DNA from: a phage
DNA: 64,000 nucleotides
Sequence record: PZ386977.1
Reading direction: 5' to 3' (one strand)
The position numbers were made by a program, and so were the translations under genes. The notes under the pieces were generated by a model that did not search any database, had not been told where the DNA came from, and saw only the letters and a program-made list of their open reading frames with translations. Numbering within the stretch: the first letter of the stretch is position 1; every line of letters begins with the position of its first letter. This document shows, in pieces, positions 15,559 through 51,126 of the stretch.

Positions 15559-15630
15559 AAGTACCTCTTAGCTCAATTCATAGGTCTATTATATCATAAT
15601 ATTTAGAGACCTATCTTAAAGCACGAGATA

Positions 15631-16453: not shown

Positions 16454-16519
16454 ATTATTTTCCTCTGTTATTTTATTATCCAATGAGAGCATTATACTCT
16501 GCTCTCAAGAGTTTGTGCA

Positions 16520-16759
16520 TTATTCCGTGATAAGATAATGTAAATAGTTTGCTTGACGAACACTGATATCAACACCCATATCAAAGATACCTTTATAGAA
16601 CGGGTATTTGTTTTCAGTAGAATCTAGACTAAAAGCCTTTCCACCACAACTAACGGTAATAGCATCAGTTAAAGTGTCATATACAAACTTAATAGTTGAG
16701 CCATTCACTACGACTTCAAGACGTTTTTTCGATGTAATAACGTCTAATTCTTGTTCCAT
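16520..16759 (-). CDS. hypothetical protein
   Basis: 79-aa ORF. Confidence 0.45.
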   Translation of the reverse strand: MEQELDVITSKKRLEVVVNGSTIKFVYDTLTDAITVSCGGKAFSLDSTENKYPFYKGIFDMGVDISVRQANYLHYLITE

Positions 16760-17711: not shown

Positions 17712-17983
17712 GGCTTAATTTCCTTCGCAATTGAACAGAAGATACCACGGTCACAAATCATTTCACCAATTTCTGGATATTTGATCGAACGGTACCAAAC
17801 ATCCAGGCTTGAAACTCTGGTTATCTGTACTGCATTACCATTGACAGAATAGTACTGGTCAACCTTAATTTCTTTATCTTCAATTGTCATTTTATTTTCC
17901 TCTATAGCAGTTTGTTTAATCTTAACACATCTATCGAGGATGTAAACTGTTTTATGAAAATATTTTTGATTTGAGAGGGGCAC
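17708..17983 (-). CDS. hypothetical protein
   Basis: 91-aa ORF. Confidence 0.45.
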   Translation of the reverse strand: MPLSNQKYFHKTVYILDRCVKIKQTAIEENKMTIEDKEIKVDQYYSVNGNAVQITRVSSLDVWYRSIKYPEIGEMICDRGIFCSIAKEIKP

Positions 17984-25088: not shown

Positions 25089-25116
25089 AATATTTTCCTC
25101 TCGTTAAGATAGATTC

Positions 25117-25146
25117 ATTATACTCCGACCATCCTTGGTTGTAAAC
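25117..25146 (-). promoter_or_regulatory. early promoter GTTTACA-N17-TATAAT
   Basis: minus-strand GTTTACAACCAAGGATGGTCGGAGTATAAT upstream of 25088 start. Confidence 0.55.
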
Positions 25147-25150
25147 TATT

Positions 25151-26110: not shown

Positions 26111-26136
26111 TTTATATTCCTCATGTTGAAAAATTT

Positions 26137-26165
26137 ATTATACTCCAACCATCCTTGGTTGTACA
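26137..26165 (-). promoter_or_regulatory. early promoter TGTACA-N17-TATAAT (duplicate of the 25117 cassette)
   Basis: spacer ACCAAGGATGGTTGGAG differs by 1 nt from the 25117-25146 copy. Confidence 0.5.
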
Positions 26166-27161
26166 TCATTCCTTAAGAAGTTTTACTACCTGAATAAGAT
26201 TAGCTCGTTCTGTTTTATTTTTACCGTTTAAGCCTGCTAATCGTGAGATTTCATCGTCAGTTTGTTGAATAGTTACATTAAGTTCATTAATCAAAGCTTC
26301 AAAGTATTTGATTTGCTCAGCATGTTTTGATTCAAATTTCTGAACCGGAATAACGTCTTGGTTTAGTTCGTCAATAAGGTCTTTAAGAGCATCTTCTTGG
26401 TTGATATCATATTCAACTTCTTTTATTTCTTCAACGAGCTCGTCTTTATATCTAACGTCTTTTAGTCCTGGTGCTGGTCCTGAAATCTCTTCTTTAAGAG
26501 TACAAACATACCCAATACGGTATCCAGTGCCGTCTCGCTTGATATCAACTTCGTCGATAAATCCACAATGTTTAAGTCCAGAGCCGATTATGTCAAAATA
26601 TCCTTGACGTCGTCCTTCAAACGTTACACGAACTACTAAGATAGTTTTGCCACCAACCTTTTGAAGCTCACATTTATAAAAGTTTGTTGAACCTGAATAA
26701 CGTGGATGAGTTTTAAAGTTCATCTGACGATCTAGGCCCATTTGTAAACGCGCTGTTACAGCCATAAAACGTGTTTGGTTCTCGTTAAGATGAGCAACGA
26801 TCCATTTCAAAGGCATTTTACACTGTTCACGACCGAACAAATCAGTACGTCCTAGATTACGCAGGATGTTGTTAGAGTTAATCATCGACAGAACGTTAAG
26901 TTTATTCAGCGCGCTGAAGATTCCATCAGCCATTGATTTTCCATAACCTTTACACGCTTTAATAAGTGCTCGTGGCAGATTAGTATAGATTTCAGACGGC
27001 ATATGAAAATCAAATTTACTAGTCAGTAATTGATGAACTTGGATAGCAATTTGCTCATAATTAAGTGCTCTGCGATCGTTATGGTCTTTAAACCACACTT
27101 TAATCTGTGAAGCACATAAACCGTTAATTTCATGTTTTACCGCATCAGATGTAATGCTCAT
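26166..27161 (-). CDS. hypothetical protein with C-terminal coiled coil
   Basis: 331-aa ORF. Confidence 0.55.
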   Translation of the reverse strand: MSITSDAVKHEINGLCASQIKVWFKDHNDRRALNYEQIAIQVHQLLTSKFDFHMPSEIYTNLPRALIKACKGYGKSMADGIFSALNKLNVLSMINSNNILRNLGRTDLFGREQCKMPLKWIVAHLNENQTRFMAVTARLQMGLDRQMNFKTHPRYSGSTNFYKCELQKVGGKTILVVRVTFEGRRQGYFDIIGSGLKHCGFIDEVDIKRDGTGYRIGYVCTLKEEISGPAPGLKDVRYKDELVEEIKEVEYDINQEDALKDLIDELNQDVIPVQKFESKHAEQIKYFEALINELNVTIQQTDDEISRLAGLNGKNKTERANLIQVVKLLKE

Positions 27162-27223
27162 AACTATTTCCTCAGATTGAATTGGAACTCAAAACCATTA
27201 TAACCCGTCCTTGGGTAAAGCGT

Positions 27224-27751
27224 TTATGCGTGAACCGTCTTTAAACGTTCTTCAAATTTCCGAAGAGTACTAATACGTTCTGCTTTCTGTTTTGTATAGT
27301 TTGCAATACGTTCTGAAGTGAGAGCGTATCGTTCGTTTACTGTTTCTTTCATGAAGTCAGGGATTTCACGAGAAGCTTTAATTTCATCAAACTTATCGAG
27401 TACTGCCTGGTCTTCAGCGATTAAATTTTCGTACATCTCGATATCTTTCTTGATAAACTCGATATCTTCCTGGGTTACTTTGGATAAACGAGATGCTTTA
27501 TCCTTTTTGTACTGCTCGTTAGTTTCACGAGACCAGAATAATGTACGTTTTTTGTTAGTGTTTTTGTAGACTTCCACAATTCCAACTGAATCGATGATAA
27601 CAATCCAATTCCAGTGAGATTTGAAAATCTGACCTCCGTCCACGGTAATCTCGTTACCATAAGCAACATCGTTAAAGAACTTGCTTTGTGCTTCAGATTT
27701 AAATTTACCGTCGTTATAATTTACCAGGTTGAAAATATCTTTAGCGTTCAT
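27224..27751 (-). CDS. hypothetical protein
   Basis: 175-aa ORF. Confidence 0.5.
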   Translation of the reverse strand: MNAKDIFNLVNYNDGKFKSEAQSKFFNDVAYGNEITVDGGQIFKSHWNWIVIIDSVGIVEVYKNTNKKRTLFWSRETNEQYKKDKASRLSKVTQEDIEFIKKDIEMYENLIAEDQAVLDKFDEIKASREIPDFMKETVNERYALTSERIANYTKQKAERISTLRKFEERLKTVHA

Positions 27752-27809
27752 GTTTTACCTCCAGTAGTTGATAGGTCTATAATAACATAACCATAGACCT
27801 TGTAAACAA

Positions 27810-31645: not shown

Positions 31646-31978
31646 TTAAAGTTTCAACAAAATTCACCAAATCATTCAGACAAGCATCAACCTGTTTTTC
31701 ATAAAAGTCTTCGTTATCATTTACTGCATGATAAGCTACATCATTCAAATCTGAATCGGCTTCACGTAAGTTACGGATAAGTTCCATCAATTTATTAGCT
31801 TGTTCACGGGTCATTTTACCATACTCGTTTCAATAAGATTCACTATGCCGTTTACCATGTTATAAGTAAACATCGGATAATTGTATTGTACTACAACATA
31901 AGCGATAAGCAAAAGTTTCATTTTGTTCTCCATTCGTTTTGGTAGGACTACTATAACATAATCCTACCAAGATGTAAA

Positions 31979-32212
31979 CTACCGATTGTGTTTTAAATGT
32001 TGATAAAGTTCTTCAACTTGTTTTGGGTCCAAAACAATTAGGTCATTTTCTTGACGAAGATAAATCCATCCCTTATCCCCAGGACCATTTTTACAAAACA
32101 TTGCCACCATATCATCATCTTCAGCGCTTTCAGGTAAAAGTTCAACCACACCGTCTTCAGATTTTCCAGTATAATCGTAAAGCATAATATCCTCACATAA
32201 TCTCGTTAACAT
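31979..32212 (-). CDS. hypothetical protein
   Basis: 77-aa acidic ORF. Confidence 0.45.
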   Translation of the reverse strand: MLTRLCEDIMLYDYTGKSEDGVVELLPESAEDDDMVAMFCKNGPGDKGWIYLRQENDLIVLDPKQVEELYQHLKHNR

Positions 32213-32372: not shown

Positions 32373-32399
32373 AACGTTCTCCTCTAGTAAGTAAGAACT

Positions 32400-32428
32400 A
32401 CTATAACACAACCTGAGGAGAAGTAAAC
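32400..32428 (-). promoter_or_regulatory. early promoter GTTTAC-N17-TATAGT
   Basis: minus-strand GTTTACTTCTCCTCAGGTTGTGTTATAGT. Confidence 0.5.
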
Positions 32429-32439
32429 TGATAGATGCC

Positions 32440-32466
32440 AAAAAGCCCCAACCATAAGGAAGGGGC
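32440..32466 (-). terminator. intrinsic terminator after rI
   Basis: minus-strand AGCCCCUUCCUUAUGGUUGGGGCU followed by UUUUU; near-copy of the 48203..48230 terminator. Confidence 0.55.
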
Positions 32467-32473
32467 TATTAAA

Positions 32474-36024: not shown

Positions 36025-36086
36025 TTTTGATTTCTCCTCTAGTTGACAGGTCTATAGTAACACAACTAGAGGAGAAGTAAACTACT

Positions 36087-38173: not shown

Positions 38174-38752
38174 TTAATTACCACGGGCTGCATTAGCAAC
38201 GGCGTAAGCGTACTGAACATTAGCGTCTTTAAATGTACCTTTAGAGGTATCTATTTCTGCCTTAAAGCCGCCTTTAGCCATAACATCGGCAAATTCTTTA
38301 CGGAAAGCCATTGCATCAAGACCTTTCCATGATGATTTATGCTTGGCAAATTCAAGACCAGCGAAATTGACCGCTTTAGCCAGTTTATTATCAATAACCC
38401 ATTTACCGGCTTTAGGCACAAACTTCGGGCCTTTTTGTTTAGAGAATAGTTTTAAATTCCATCGACGAAGGTCACTGTCTGCTTTAACAAAAGCTGCGTC
38501 TAAGTTACTAGCAACAACATCTTCAATATGGGCAAATTTAAGTCCGTCAACTTCAATATTTAGATCGTTACGCCAGCGAAGTCCTTCCCAAGCGAAGGCT
38601 TTAAAGTCGGAAGCCTTTGTAGCTAAGTACCGTTCAATAGGAGCTGTTTTAGGGTCAAAGCCGTTTCCGCCACGATAAGTCCACTCGTCCTTATTAATGC
38701 CTTGAGCTTTTCCTGCAAAGGCTTCGGCGATAAATTCTTTATACGTTTTCAT
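38174..38752 (-). CDS. internal head protein (IPIII-like) with capsid-targeting leader
   Basis: 192 aa; starts MKTYKEFIAE| (prohead-protease LxE-type site). Confidence 0.75.
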   Translation of the reverse strand: MKTYKEFIAEAFAGKAQGINKDEWTYRGGNGFDPKTAPIERYLATKASDFKAFAWEGLRWRNDLNIEVDGLKFAHIEDVVASNLDAAFVKADSDLRRWNLKLFSKQKGPKFVPKAGKWVIDNKLAKAVNFAGLEFAKHKSSWKGLDAMAFRKEFADVMAKGGFKAEIDTSKGTFKDANVQYAYAVANAARGN

Positions 38753-38777
38753 TTTGTTCCTATTTATTTAATTTATG

Positions 38778-39092
38778 TTATTCTTTAGGGAAGTTTTTAG
38801 AGTATGCGTCATAAAGTTTATTACCAATACGACGGAAGACTTTAGCTGCAAAACGGTTTTCAGGGTTTTTAATCATGATTTGCATCATGTAAGTTCCTGC
38901 ATCCGAAAGAGCTTCTTCGTAGTACCCATTAATTTCTTTAAGAGTCCTACGTTTACCGCCAGGACCATCAACGGTAATTTTCCATTTACCTGTAGAAGTG
39001 CGGCTCGGTGGCTCAACTTGTTCAATCCAAATATAACCACCTTCAACGCGTTGGTTGGCGGATTCTGCAATAAATTCTTTATACGTTTTCAT
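38778..39092 (-). CDS. internal head protein (IPII-like) with capsid-targeting leader
   Basis: 104 aa; starts MKTYKEFIAE. Confidence 0.75.
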   Translation of the reverse strand: MKTYKEFIAESANQRVEGGYIWIEQVEPPSRTSTGKWKITVDGPGGKRRTLKEINGYYEEALSDAGTYMMQIMIKNPENRFAAKVFRRIGNKLYDAYSKNFPKE

Positions 39093-39257
39093 TTTTGTTT
39101 CCTTGTTTGTTTTGATAGAGTAATTATACCATATTAATACTTAAGCGTAAACAATTTAAGCTTTACCGCCAGAAATAATTCCAAAGTTGTTAAAATCGTA
39201 TCCAATATCGTCAACATCCACTTTAGGGATAAATTCTTGATACATTTTCATTTTTCC

Positions 39258-39671: not shown

Positions 39672-39729
39672 AATTTCCTCCAAGTAGTTGATGAATGTAT
39701 AGTATCAAAACCCTTGGAGGAAGTAAACA

Positions 39730-40026
39730 CTATTTTTCTGAAGCGCCTGAAATATATTTTTCAAGACGTTGTTTCATCAGAGAGCCGTTCTTAGCGATTT
39801 CTTCCGGCTTATCGCACATACGTAACAAGGCTTCAAGCTTAGCGATATCACTGGTGCGCTCAAATTTGCGAGTATCTATCTTACTAGCAAGTTCAGAAAT
39901 ACGTGCTAATAGACTTTCGGCTTCAACCAAAGCTGCACCTAGCTTAGTTGCAAATGTGTCAGTAGCTTCGTTAAGAATAGATTCTGATAAAAATTCATTA
40001 TATGTTTTCATATATACGCTTTCCAA
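39730..40026 (-). CDS. internal-protein-like protein with capsid-targeting leader
   Basis: 98 aa; starts [10 protein letters not shown]. Confidence 0.7.
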
Positions 40027-42696: not shown

Positions 42697-42724
42697 AATA
42701 TTCTCCTCATGTTTTAATAGGACT

Positions 42725-42754
42725 ACTATAACATAGTCCTATAATTGTGTAAAC
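42725..42754 (-). promoter_or_regulatory. early promoter GTTTACA-N17-TATAGT embedded in ATAGGACT/AGTCCTAT palindrome
   Basis: minus-strand GTTTACACAATTATAGGACTATGTTATAGT. Confidence 0.55.
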
Positions 42755-44000: not shown

Positions 44001-44016
44001 TTGTTTTGATAGGACT

Positions 44017-44046
44017 ACTATAACATAGCCCTATCTTGTTGTAAAC
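44017..44046 (-). promoter_or_regulatory. early promoter GTTTACA-N17-TATAGT in palindrome (near-copy of 42725 and 50722 cassettes)
   Basis: GATAGGACTACTATAACATAGCCCTATC element. Confidence 0.55.
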
Positions 44047-46559: not shown

Positions 46560-46614
46560 TTGGTTGTTTATTATCCAACGAGAGCATTATACTCTGCTCT
46601 CAAGAGTTTGTAAA

Positions 46615-46842
46615 TTATTTTTTAATCAAATTGACATAAAACTTGGCGTCTTCTGGGTGCATGCCTTCGCAGTATTCTTCAACCATGAACTTCTTAACAG
46701 CTTCATAAGGACCACTCAGATTAAGCTCAGTTGTCCAGAACTTGGAATCTTGGACTGAATCGATACGAACCTCAGGGTGTCGGTTGCGAATAACTTCTTC
46801 GGTGTATTCATAATCAACTACATCAATACTAACTTTAGCCAT
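46615..46842 (-). CDS. hypothetical protein
   Basis: 75-aa ORF. Confidence 0.45.
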   Translation of the reverse strand: MAKVSIDVVDYEYTEEVIRNRHPEVRIDSVQDSKFWTTELNLSGPYEAVKKFMVEEYCEGMHPEDAKFYVNLIKK

Positions 46843-47537: not shown

Positions 47538-48158
47538 TTACTTACGAGTTTTTGCATACTGAGCAGCGTCAGCAGCCAAACGACCTGCCTGACGAAGTTT
47601 TTCTTTAATCGCATCGTGAAGTGGTTGAGTATACTTCAAACCTTCGATAGTCAAATAAAGACGATAAAGGTCTGGGGTATCAAGGTTGTTGATATGTTGG
47701 CCATTACGAAGACTGTTGAATTCACGAACGAGTGAAGATGTATCGGATTCAATATCACGAACAAGCGAAGATAGTTGTTTATATTTTTTTTCCAGGCTAG
47801 AAGTATCAAACTTAAGAGCAGGAGCTTTAGGAGTTGCTTTTACTTCCGGCTTAGGCTCAGGTTTTGCTTTAGGGGCCGCAGGTTTAGGAACGGTAGGAGC
47901 AGGTTTTACTTTAGGCGAACCCGATTTAGCAGAAACACCACCACTAACAATATCTTTGAATGCTTTAGAAGCTCTGTAATATTCTTTTTGGGTGGAAGTG
48001 TCGATACCGTACATGGCTTGAACGTTTTTGAAAAACTCTGTACTAGTTTTTGTACCAGAAATAGCATCGTAAGCAGCTTGCCATTTCTCTTTTGTCATAC
48101 GTACACCGGCTTCGGTGATTACTTCCGTTTCGGCTAAAAATTCATTAAAAGTATACAT
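47538..48158 (-). CDS. internal-protein-like protein with capsid-targeting leader and Pro/Ala/Lys-rich segment
   Basis: 206 aa; starts MYTFNEFLAE; KVKPAPTVPKPAAPKAKPEPKPEVKATPKAPALK low-complexity block. Confidence 0.65.
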   Translation of the reverse strand: MYTFNEFLAETEVITEAGVRMTKEKWQAAYDAISGTKTSTEFFKNVQAMYGIDTSTQKEYYRASKAFKDIVSGGVSAKSGSPKVKPAPTVPKPAAPKAKPEPKPEVKATPKAPALKFDTSSLEKKYKQLSSLVRDIESDTSSLVREFNSLRNGQHINNLDTPDLYRLYLTIEGLKYTQPLHDAIKEKLRQAGRLAADAAQYAKTRK

Positions 48159-48193
48159 TGATGGTCCTTAGAAAGTGGGTTTATTGTTTACTA

Positions 48194-48201
48194 TATTTAT
48201 A
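48194..48201 (-). promoter_or_regulatory. late promoter TATAAATA
   Basis: minus-strand TATAAATA between tRNA-cluster terminator and the 48158 start. Confidence 0.5.
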
Positions 48202-48202
48202 C

Positions 48203-48230
48203 AAAAAAGCCCCAACCTTTCGGAAGGGGC
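48203..48230 (-). terminator. intrinsic terminator ending the tRNA operon
   Basis: minus-strand GCCCCUUCCGAAAGGUUGGGGC followed by UUUUUU. Confidence 0.6.
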
Positions 48231-48239
48231 TATATACCT

Positions 48240-50705: not shown

Positions 50706-50721
50706 TTGTTTTGATAGGACT

Positions 50722-50751
50722 ACTATAACATAGTCCTATCGGCATGTAAAC
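50722..50751 (-). promoter_or_regulatory. early promoter GTTTACA-N17-TATAGT embedded in perfect 10-bp-arm palindrome
   Basis: GATAGGACTACTATAACATAGTCCTATC at 50713..50740; the -35 overlaps the upstream stop codon. Confidence 0.55.
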
Positions 50752-51062
50752 TATTTTATGCCTTTAGATGAAATAGTATTCTGGCGTTTGACCCCTGTTT
50801 GTGAAAAATCGTGGTTATCGATTTGGTCGACTCGCATAACACCAAATGCAGATTTAATTTTAGCCTTTGAACCTTTTTTGATACTAATTACCATATAAGT
50901 ATCATTTTTCTTATATTCGAAATTTGTTACTTCAACGCCTTGATTAGAAATTGACTTAATAATAGCATTAGCGTATTCATCATCTAACGGGCCGTTAGTG
51001 TTAATAACAAAATTTTTATCCGCTTTAGTAGCTTCCGCGATAAACTCTTGATACGTTTTCAT
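50751..51062 (-). CDS. internal protein I-like protein with capsid-targeting leader
   Basis: 103 aa; starts MKTYQEFIAE; position next to 57B as T4 ipI. Confidence 0.7.
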   Translation of the reverse strand: MKTYQEFIAEATKADKNFVINTNGPLDDEYANAIIKSISNQGVEVTNFEYKKNDTYMVISIKKGSKAKIKSAFGVMRVDQIDNHDFSQTGVKRQNTISSKGIK

Positions 51063-51096
51063 TTTATTTCCTTGAGGTTGTTTATTTGATAGGATG

Positions 51097-51126
51097 ATAG
51101 TATCACACCATCATCCTTATGTAAAC
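51097..51126 (-). promoter_or_regulatory. early promoter GTTTACA-N17-TACTAT
   Basis: minus-strand GTTTACATAAGGATGATGGTGTGATACTAT upstream of 51062 start. Confidence 0.5.

Follow-up and report, generated by a model that had tools for sequence, protein, structure and literature searches.

Early promoters built into stem-loops that probably act at the RNA level in an RB69-like phage

Why is the -10 box of an early phage promoter enclosed by an inverted repeat, and is that repeat read in the DNA or in the RNA? The question is raised by a locus near 42.7 kb of a phage DNA stretch of 64,000 nucleotides (nt), record PZ386977.1, which is referred to here as the window and in which all positions are counted. 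An original prediction made from this sequence held that many early promoters of the window are embedded in palindromes whose arms differ between copies and stay complementary, and it placed the selection on an operator or a cruciform. The results obtained here point to a different level. We consider these sites to be Mosigvirus cassettes of the promoter-early stem-loop (PeSL) type, in which an early promoter forms part of a stem-loop whose action lies in the RNA, through folding in readthrough transcripts, and we put the probability of this reading at about 0.65.

The description of PeSL cassettes in RB49 and phi1 (Arbiol et al., 2010; PMC2839356) was widened to include PST/T4 and nt-1/KVP40 (Comeau et al., 2014; PMC4122927). 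Around the 42.7-kb locus, stretches of 8 and 25 kb are 95-97% identical to genomes of Mosigvirus (RB69-like, Tevenvirinae), and roughly 1,200 genomes of the Tevenvirinae gave matches to the window. Synteny with annotated relatives gave the gene order 55, nrdD, 49, nrdC, tk, vs, regB, denV and e, followed by the tRNA and internal-protein region and then by genes 57, 1, 3 and 2 and those of the baseplate; the minus strand carries the early genes. The identity of regB and denV was taken from the annotation of Mosigvirus S143_2. The geometry of the cassettes, the covariation of their arms, the strand asymmetry of their mismatches and their association with homology breakpoints were computed in the present analysis.

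Inverted repeats around the early promoters

The motif GTTTACA-N17-TATART, with at most one mismatch, was matched 12 times in the window, always on the minus strand, against an expectation of 0.46, and none of 100 shuffled sequences reached 12. A relaxed scan gave 26 early-promoter-like sites on the same strand. A-rich tracts are found upstream of the early promoters, as in the sigma-70-like early promoter of a PeSL. The cassette promoters are strong sigma-70-type early promoters of the T4 type, with an A-rich UP region, GTTTAC, TGn, TAnnnT and a start at the A of ATCAA. The published logo of RB69 early promoters has C at -3 to -1 (PMC1524935), and the CCT in the 3' arm of the class A hairpins described below agrees with it; +1 is therefore placed at the A of the conserved ATCAA in TATAGT AGTCCT ATCAA. 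The study in question listed 57 RB69 early promoters and did not mention hairpins (Nolan et al., 2006; PMC1524935).

A swap test was performed in which each site was split at the -10, and the pairing of the spacer with its own downstream region was compared with its pairing with the downstream regions of other promoters. Across 22 curated promoters, the duplex energy was -11.2 kcal/mol for native halves and -7.9 kcal/mol for swapped halves (permutation p ~5e-5). An inverted-repeat score was also used, which counts Watson-Crick pairs only and allows up to one mismatch. With a threshold of at least 7, a repeat enclosing the -10 was found at 11 of the 26 window promoters (42%), compared with 9.5% of the swapped pairs. 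Together with the 12 motif matches, this confirms that about half of the early promoters of the window lie in palindromes. Motif matches on the opposite strand were dropped as a negative control, because a palindrome reads alike on both strands and such matches are not independent; swapped halves were used instead.

Other phages were sampled by pattern scans of IMG/VR contigs and from INPHARED records. A search of IMG/VR with the 101-residue open reading frame (ORF) downstream of the 42.7-kb cassette matched just two close relatives. A scan with GTTTAC-N15-TGTTATAGT returned mostly chance matches in unrelated contigs; in later scans, the pattern also included the conserved ATCAA start motif. 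Scores of at least 7 were observed at 13/26 promoters in S143_2 and 11/24 in ZQ3, both Mosigvirus, and, in other genera, at 7/23 in the Tequatrovirus PST and 6/19 in the Gaprivervirus VR7, while the swapped rates across these relatives were 8-16%. For 462 unique cassettes pooled with the IMG/VR contigs, the proportions were 31% native and 11% swapped.

Two geometries were distinguished, a split that is new in this analysis and absent from the PeSL papers. Class A is a short hairpin around the -10, with a stem of 7-12 base pairs (bp), a loop of mostly 6-12 nt and a 3' arm that runs from the last bases of the -10 (about -7) to +2/+5. It begins ~10-25 nt past the stop codon of the upstream gene, and its register is variable, the hairpins at 51.1 and 27.8 kb being shifted by a few bases. 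The 42.7-kb cassette belongs to this class. Its 8-nt loop holds most of the extended -10 (TGT TATAGT), the -10 hexamer spans the loop and the 3' arm, and its RNA fold reaches -15.2 kcal/mol (z -3.05).

In class B, the 5' arm directly follows GTTTAC and is an anti-Shine-Dalgarno sequence (TTCTCCTC or TTCCTCC) that pairs with the Shine-Dalgarno (SD) sequence of the downstream gene across a loop of 17-30 nt. Anti-SD tetramers were found in 4 of 22 spacers, where 5% were expected (p = 0.02). The 143 pooled stems comprised 83 of class A, 25 of class B (containing the SD) and 35 others, some of which are probably chance. The SD is sequestered in the predicted helix at 36082, 39728 and 17947, all of class B, and is left free by class A, including the 42.7-kb hairpin. 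The site at 36.0 kb, which had been presented as a palindrome centred on the -10, proved to be a different structure, namely a 14-bp class B helix that buries the SD of regB.

RNA folding covered the stretch that begins at the -35 and ends at the start codon. Most of the hairpin-bearing cassettes folded at -14 to -21.6 kcal/mol (z -2.8 to -4.1); weaker folds were obtained at 27807 (z -1.8), 17947 (z -2.2) and 32428 (z -1.0), and the promoters with no hairpin gave z near 0. At most of the hairpin promoters, 0-13 nt separate the upstream stop codon from the -35 that follows it, and the ATG comes 16-41 nt past the -10, whereas the hairpin-less promoters are mostly located inside upstream ORFs. 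The cassettes therefore occupy an intergenic position, from the stop codon to the SD and ATG, and they are repeated many times (families D1, D2, D4, D5 and D8). At 50751, 46615, 31979 and 26166 (-35 boxes, minus strand), the upstream stop codon overlaps the first base of the -35; in ...ATAGTTTAC, for example, the last base of TAG also serves as the first of GTTTAC. These junctions are extremely compact.

The covariation of the arms was computed on 47 distinct cassettes, which were picked only by their -35, TGn and TATAGT, by AT-rich sequence upstream and by an SD and ATG downstream, with the arms disregarded. For a fixed-register helix of 12 pairs, the covariation was 0.325, compared with 0.197 +/- 0.018 in shuffles, none of which (0/500) reached the native value, and with 0.11-0.18 when the partner was slid by 1-3 columns. 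Paired cells amounted to 63.7%, as against 54.3% in shuffles and 32-49% when slid.

Individual cassettes show the same changes directly. In relatives, the position is occupied by many arm pairs of unrelated sequence (TAGGGTCA/TGACCCTA, TGTAGGAGTA/TACTCCTACA, GATAGGGCTA/TAGCCCTATC and AAGGCTAT/ATAGCCTT). The S143_2 ortholog of the 50.7-kb cassette has the arms GATAGGGTA/TACCCTATC instead of GATAGGACTA/TAGTCCTATC with the pairing kept, and the 31.9- and 50.7-kb cassettes differ by a compensatory change from A-T to G-C. The regB arms are TTCTCCTCTAGTTG/CAACTAGAGGAGAA in the window and TCCTCTTGACTG/CAGTTAAGAGGA in PST. At nrdC.8, the window has a class A hairpin and the PST ortholog a class B helix, GTTCCTCTGT/ACGGAGGAAC. 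The covariation of the arms implies selection on the pairing, beyond the promoter sequence. This part of the original prediction was upheld, as was the expectation that relatives keep the arms as palindromes: the orthologous promoters in S143_2, and that of regB in PST, have different but complementary arms.

Selection on the RNA or on the DNA

A palindrome in double-stranded DNA is symmetric, and G·T and A·C mismatches are therefore expected in equal numbers, whereas a helix in the sense-strand RNA tolerates only G·U. Mismatches were counted in unique stems with a Watson-Crick-only score, exactly one internal mismatch and at least three GC pairs. These one-mismatch stems contained 32 G·T/T·G, 6 A·C/C·A and 14 other mismatches, and the swapped controls 90, 85 and 256, respectively. 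The excess was significant for G·U against A·C (Fisher p = 2e-4) and for G·U against the rest (p = 4e-9), and A·C was not enriched. Earlier, smaller counts of G·T and A·C (18 vs 5, then 25 vs 9) were suggestive, with Fisher p ~0.1 against the control; the excess became clear only with more cassettes and the filter of at least three GC pairs.

The alternative that survives best, which we nevertheless hold to be improbable, is an element that works in the DNA: a cruciform or single-stranded hairpin that modulates promoter melting or is targeted by recombination or by a structure-specific protein such as endonuclease VII. The palindromes are real, each strand folds as DNA with z of about -4 to -5, breakpoints between relatives coincide with cassettes, and the authors of the PeSL work speculated on a recombination protein that binds the stem-loop (PMC2839356). 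The DNA hairpins are weak, however, since each strand folds at -3.8 to -7 kcal/mol with loops of 8-14 nt, and the strand that carries C·A is the weaker one. Such weak hairpins with this loop geometry are unfavourable for cruciform extrusion. The ratio of 32 G·T to 6 A·C means that the complementary strand bears the destabilising C·A, as in the 44.0-kb cassette, whose plus strand folds at -3.8 kcal/mol. Furthermore, the class B helices target the SD across their long loops, for which there is no rationale at the DNA level. The asymmetry between G·T and A·C, the weakness of the DNA hairpins and the differing arms thus place the selection on the sense-strand RNA, and the operator or cruciform that had been suggested was not borne out.

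It could also be argued that no structure is selected at all and that the palindromes are a by-product of duplicated cassettes, of a self-complementary consensus (ACTAT..ATAGT) or of templated mutation at quasi-palindromes. Several cassettes are clearly paralogous (families D1, D2, D4 and D8), the consensus TGTTATAGT has an intrinsic dyad symmetry (CTAT/ATAG), and mutation by quasi-palindrome correction is known from T4. The swap tests control for the symmetry of the consensus, though, and identical paralogs only make them more conservative. The covariation exceeds that of shuffled and slid controls, and the arms at orthologous sites in different genera are unrelated. Repeats made by templated correction would be perfect in their Watson-Crick pairing and would not favour G·T above A·C. 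We regard this explanation as still less probable than a DNA-level element. A dimeric phage or host regulator that binds the palindrome over the -10 and shuts off the early promoters is very improbable, for despite the dyad symmetry centred near the -10 box and a T4 early-promoter shut-off mechanism that is not fully understood (PMC3014915), the arms differ (ATAGGACT, GGTAGGA, GAGAGCA, AGGATGAT and AGGTCTAT; TGTAGGAG in relatives), the register shifts by several bases with no common half-site across promoters, half of the early promoters have no palindrome, and strand-asymmetric wobble pairs would not matter to a protein bound to double-stranded DNA.

A proposed role in readthrough transcripts

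In every case, the 5' arm was located in the spacer separating the -35 from the -10, upstream of the promoter's own inferred start, so that only RNA from upstream promoters could fold. The promoter's own transcript would lack the 5' arm, would hold at most 2-5 nt of the class A 3' arm and would stay unfolded. A transcript reading through from an upstream promoter would contain both arms and would fold. The start site, the folding in vivo and the attenuating, stabilising or masking functions considered here are predictions made from the sequence.

For class A, the most likely role would be to end, attenuate or 3'-stabilise the upstream message and thereby to insulate the downstream gene from readthrough. 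Its placement ~10-25 nt past the upstream stop would suit a role as attenuator, as processing landmark or as protector of the 3' end of the upstream message. In phi1, reporter expression was reduced by one PeSL stem-loop to the same extent as by rrnB T1 (PMC2839356). The 16.5-kb copy of the 46.6-kb cassette has a -35 that has decayed to ATGCAC, while its hairpin GAGAGCA/TGCTCTC and its TATAAT have been preserved. This copy may be a 'degraded PeSL' reduced to its RNA element, and the retention of the hairpin despite the decayed -35 fits a function that is independent of local initiation.

For class B, the gene would be translated, and exposed to cleavage by RegB, only from its own early promoter. 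RNA structure protects GGAG from RegB, and regB is tightly controlled and cuts its own SD (PMC3014915); by analogy, a masked regB site in readthrough RNA would be a coherent extension of these facts. A comparable arrangement is known from the T4 genes e, soc, 49 and I-TevI, in which SD-masking helices have a promoter inside the 5' strand, the promoter-proximal mRNA is translatable and longer transcripts are masked (PMC3014915). The class B cassettes (regB, denV, 17.9 and 32.4 kb) are alike in that the SD is paired upstream and the promoter is in the region of the 5' strand and loop. They differ in that the embedded promoter is an early one of the GTTTAC/TAnnnT sigma-70 type and not a late gp55 promoter (TATAAATA). 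Where the logic of the T4 genes is 'translate only late', that of class B would be 'translate only while own early promoter fires'.

Several points weigh against this interpretation. The start site was derived from promoter geometry and the published logo. The excess of G·U could have been inflated by shared ancestry of the stems or by a strand-biased mutation spectrum; the composition-matched swapped controls have no G·U bias, and the genome skews are small. A hairpin is missing from about half of the early promoters, and the structure is therefore not required for promoter function or at every junction. The attenuating role suggested for class A is an analogy with one reporter experiment in a different phage, phi1. 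A terminator scan called no class A or class B cassette, and the class A hairpins have no U tract: hairpins of both classes are followed by AUCAAAAC, and the tails read ATCAAAAC. A classical intrinsic terminator was accordingly rejected at every cassette. At 32428, the minimum-energy fold prefers another structure over the SD-masking helix. In VR7, the regB promoter has no anti-SD spacer, and class B is therefore not universal. A search of the available literature for genome-wide maps of T4 or RB69 transcript 5'/3' ends gave no usable map.

The coordinates of the cassettes and of the related features are collected in Table 1. The arm pairs listed in the original prediction were all present at their places, although two of these sites depart from the promoter pattern: the -35 is degenerate at 16.5 kb, and there is no GTTTAC box at 15.6 kb. 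The 15.6-kb palindrome (15587-15621, minus strand) consists of ATAGGTCT/AGACCTAT with a 19-nt loop that contains TATTAT and TATAAT. It was set aside as an early promoter for want of the GTTTAC box; a MotA-box-like TGCTTTA lies upstream, with a spacing that is unfit for the TATAAT. The site may be a middle or a late promoter, or no promoter.

Table 1. Positions of early-promoter cassettes and associated features in the 64,000-nt window
Feature	Position	Strand	Sequence or arms	Remarks
Class A, 42.7 kb	42717..42754	-	GTTTAC-ACAATT-ATAGGACTA-TGT-TATAGT-AGTCCTAT	
42.7-kb cassette, arms	42734-42742; 42717-42725	-	ATAGGACTA; TAGTCCTAT	9-bp inverted repeat
42.7-kb cassette, promoter boxes	-35, 42749-42754; -10, 42725-42730; putative +1, 42718	-	GTTTAC; TATAGT; A	
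Class A, 44.0 kb	44008..44046	-	GATAGGGCTA/TAGTCCTATC	10 bp, one G·T (G·U in RNA); z -3.31
Class A, 50.7 kb	50713..50751	-	GATAGGACTA/TAGTCCTATC	10 bp, perfect; z -3.93
Class A, 31.9 kb	31939..31979	-	TTGGTAGGATTA/TAGTCCTACCAA	12 bp, one T·G; z -3.99
Class A, 46.6 kb	46580..46615	-	GAGAGCA/TGCTCTC around TATAAT	z -2.81; repeat family D8
Class A, 16.5 kb	16485..16520	-		Duplicate of the 46.6-kb cassette (D8, 86% over 66 nt)
Class A, shifted register, 51.1 kb	51091..51126	-	AGGATGAT/ATCATCCT around TACTAT	z -3.58
Class A, 27.8 kb	27773..27807	-	AGGTCTAT/ATAGACCT around TATTAT	Upstream of the nrdC.8 ortholog; z -1.8
Class B, regB	36032..36082	-	Spacer TTCTCCTCTAGTTG pairs with CAACTAGAGGAGAA (holds the regB SD)	14 bp; -21.6 kcal/mol, z -4.11
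Class B, denV	39675..39728	-	TTCCTCCAAG pairs with CTTGGAGGAA (SD)	10 bp; -19.1 kcal/mol, z -3.31
Class B, 17.9 kb	17898..17947	-	TCCTCGATAG pairs with CTATAGAGGA	9/10 positions; -10.9 kcal/mol, z -2.17
Class B-like, 32.4 kb	32377..32428	-	TTCTCCTC complementary to GAGGAGAA (SD)	8 bp; z -0.99; weaker case
Terminator-like hairpins, D9	32435-32469; 48199-48233	-	AGCCCCTTCC-TTAT-GGTTGGGGCT-TTTTT	GC-rich stem and T run
Gene-start repeats, D3	38721-38758; 39061-39098; 39220-39257; 39980-40017; 48127-48164; 51031-51068	-		Several adjoin early-promoter cassettes

Exchange of cassettes and relation to known systems

An alignment of the window with S143_2, ZQ3 and two Mosigvirus contigs from IMG/VR yielded 35 homology breakpoints in the interval 15.3-52.5 kb. 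Of these, eight were located at most 10 nt from a cassette, as against 1.6 at random positions (P = 3e-4). When only gene junctions were compared, 8 of 19 promoter-bearing junctions and 12 of 61 others were hit (odds ratio ~3, p = 0.07). The clearest case is found at ZQ3 26964-27238, corresponding to window 42742-42748, where an extra ORF of 66 residues stands between two cassettes whose arms differ (AGGTCTGTA/TATAGACCT and ATAGGGCTA/TAGTCCTAT). At 42.7 kb, the window has a single chimeric cassette, the upstream half of which matches the first ZQ3 cassette and the downstream half the second. This is an exchange of a PeSL plus an ORFan as proposed by Arbiol et al. (PMC2839356). A further difference between the window and its relatives, at 44.9 kb, was not cassette-to-cassette.

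Three near-identical copies had been proposed as recombination sites. These copies are the repeat families D1 and D2; the cassettes at 42.7 and 50.7 kb share an identical 26-mer, from which the one at 44.0 kb differs by one base. The repeated cassettes could double as homology patches for the gain and loss of small ORFs. A role in recombination is plausible, with the breakpoint excess over random positions and one clean example in ZQ3, although the comparison with other gene junctions does not establish it statistically.

The six copies of the D3 family, which encode gene starts with MKTYKEFIAEA-like peptides, were noted separately. The peptide resembles the capsid-targeting leader of T4 internal proteins, and the family presumably points to dispersed internal-protein genes.

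At the level of sequence, the window cassettes have the features of PeSLs, and the kinship with the cassettes of T4-type phages that had been proposed for them holds for the promoter, the stem-loop and the intergenic position. Common to both are the fusion of a stem-loop to a sigma-70-like early promoter preceded by AT-rich sequence, the intergenic location in many copies within plastic early regions, the overlap with the -10, the G-T pairs and, plausibly, the association with insertion, deletion or replacement of small ORFs between close relatives. The stem-loops of PeSLs were described as 'most commonly between -35 and -10 or overlapping the -10 box', and G-T pairs were drawn in them (PMC2839356). 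The window cassettes differ from the RB49 PeSLs in their genus, Mosigvirus, and in their stems, which are AT-richer (e.g., ATAGGACTA) than the GGGG...CCCC of RB49. They mostly enclose the -10 and reach the start, whereas the stem-loop of the PST/T4 PeSLs was described just upstream of the promoter. Terminator activity and mini-circles from cassette-cassette exchange were shown only for phi1/RB49 (PMC2839356). The present analysis adds to the PeSL papers the swap statistics in three genera, the asymmetry of G·U over A·C and the masking of the SD by early-promoter helices at regB and denV.

Intrinsic terminators resemble both classes in having a stem-loop just past the stop codon, but the stems of class A and class B are shorter and AT-richer. 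The two D9 hairpins look like true intrinsic terminators. One of them, at 32435-32469, lies directly upstream of the 32428 early promoter, which is the PST/T4 arrangement with the stem-loop just upstream. A third position of the stem-loop was seen at 26128-26170 and 25108-25150 (minus strand), the paralog at 25146 having a mismatch (TGGTCG); it fits another PeSL subclass.

The tolerance of G·U, the compensatory changes and the conservation across genera with unrelated arms provide evidence, drawn from sequence, for selection on the sense-strand RNA. A wider and more speculative possibility is that early promoters across the Tevenvirinae are systematically built into RNA switches that report the origin of a transcript, open when it is local and folded when it derives from upstream; we consider this possible but rather doubtful. 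If true, class B would tie the translation and RegB exposure of dosage-sensitive early genes to the firing window of their own promoter, with regB and denV as examples of an arrangement that different genera retain in different sequences. Class A hairpins would set processing or 3'-end sites, cutting long readthrough RNAs into gene-sized units. Together they would form a general insulation grammar, as yet undescribed in those terms, of early genes, and it would explain why the cassette, and not the promoter, is the recombining unit.

The results extend the PeSL cassette idea to RB69-like phages, a group widely employed in phage therapy and in work on polymerases. The regB and denV genes offer concrete, testable cases in which an early promoter lies inside a hairpin that is predicted to mask the gene's own ribosome-binding site. 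Anyone who annotates T4-type phages or engineers their genomes should regard promoter, hairpin and gene junction as a single unit, since downstream expression may change when a promoter is moved without its arms or when a neighbouring ORF is deleted.

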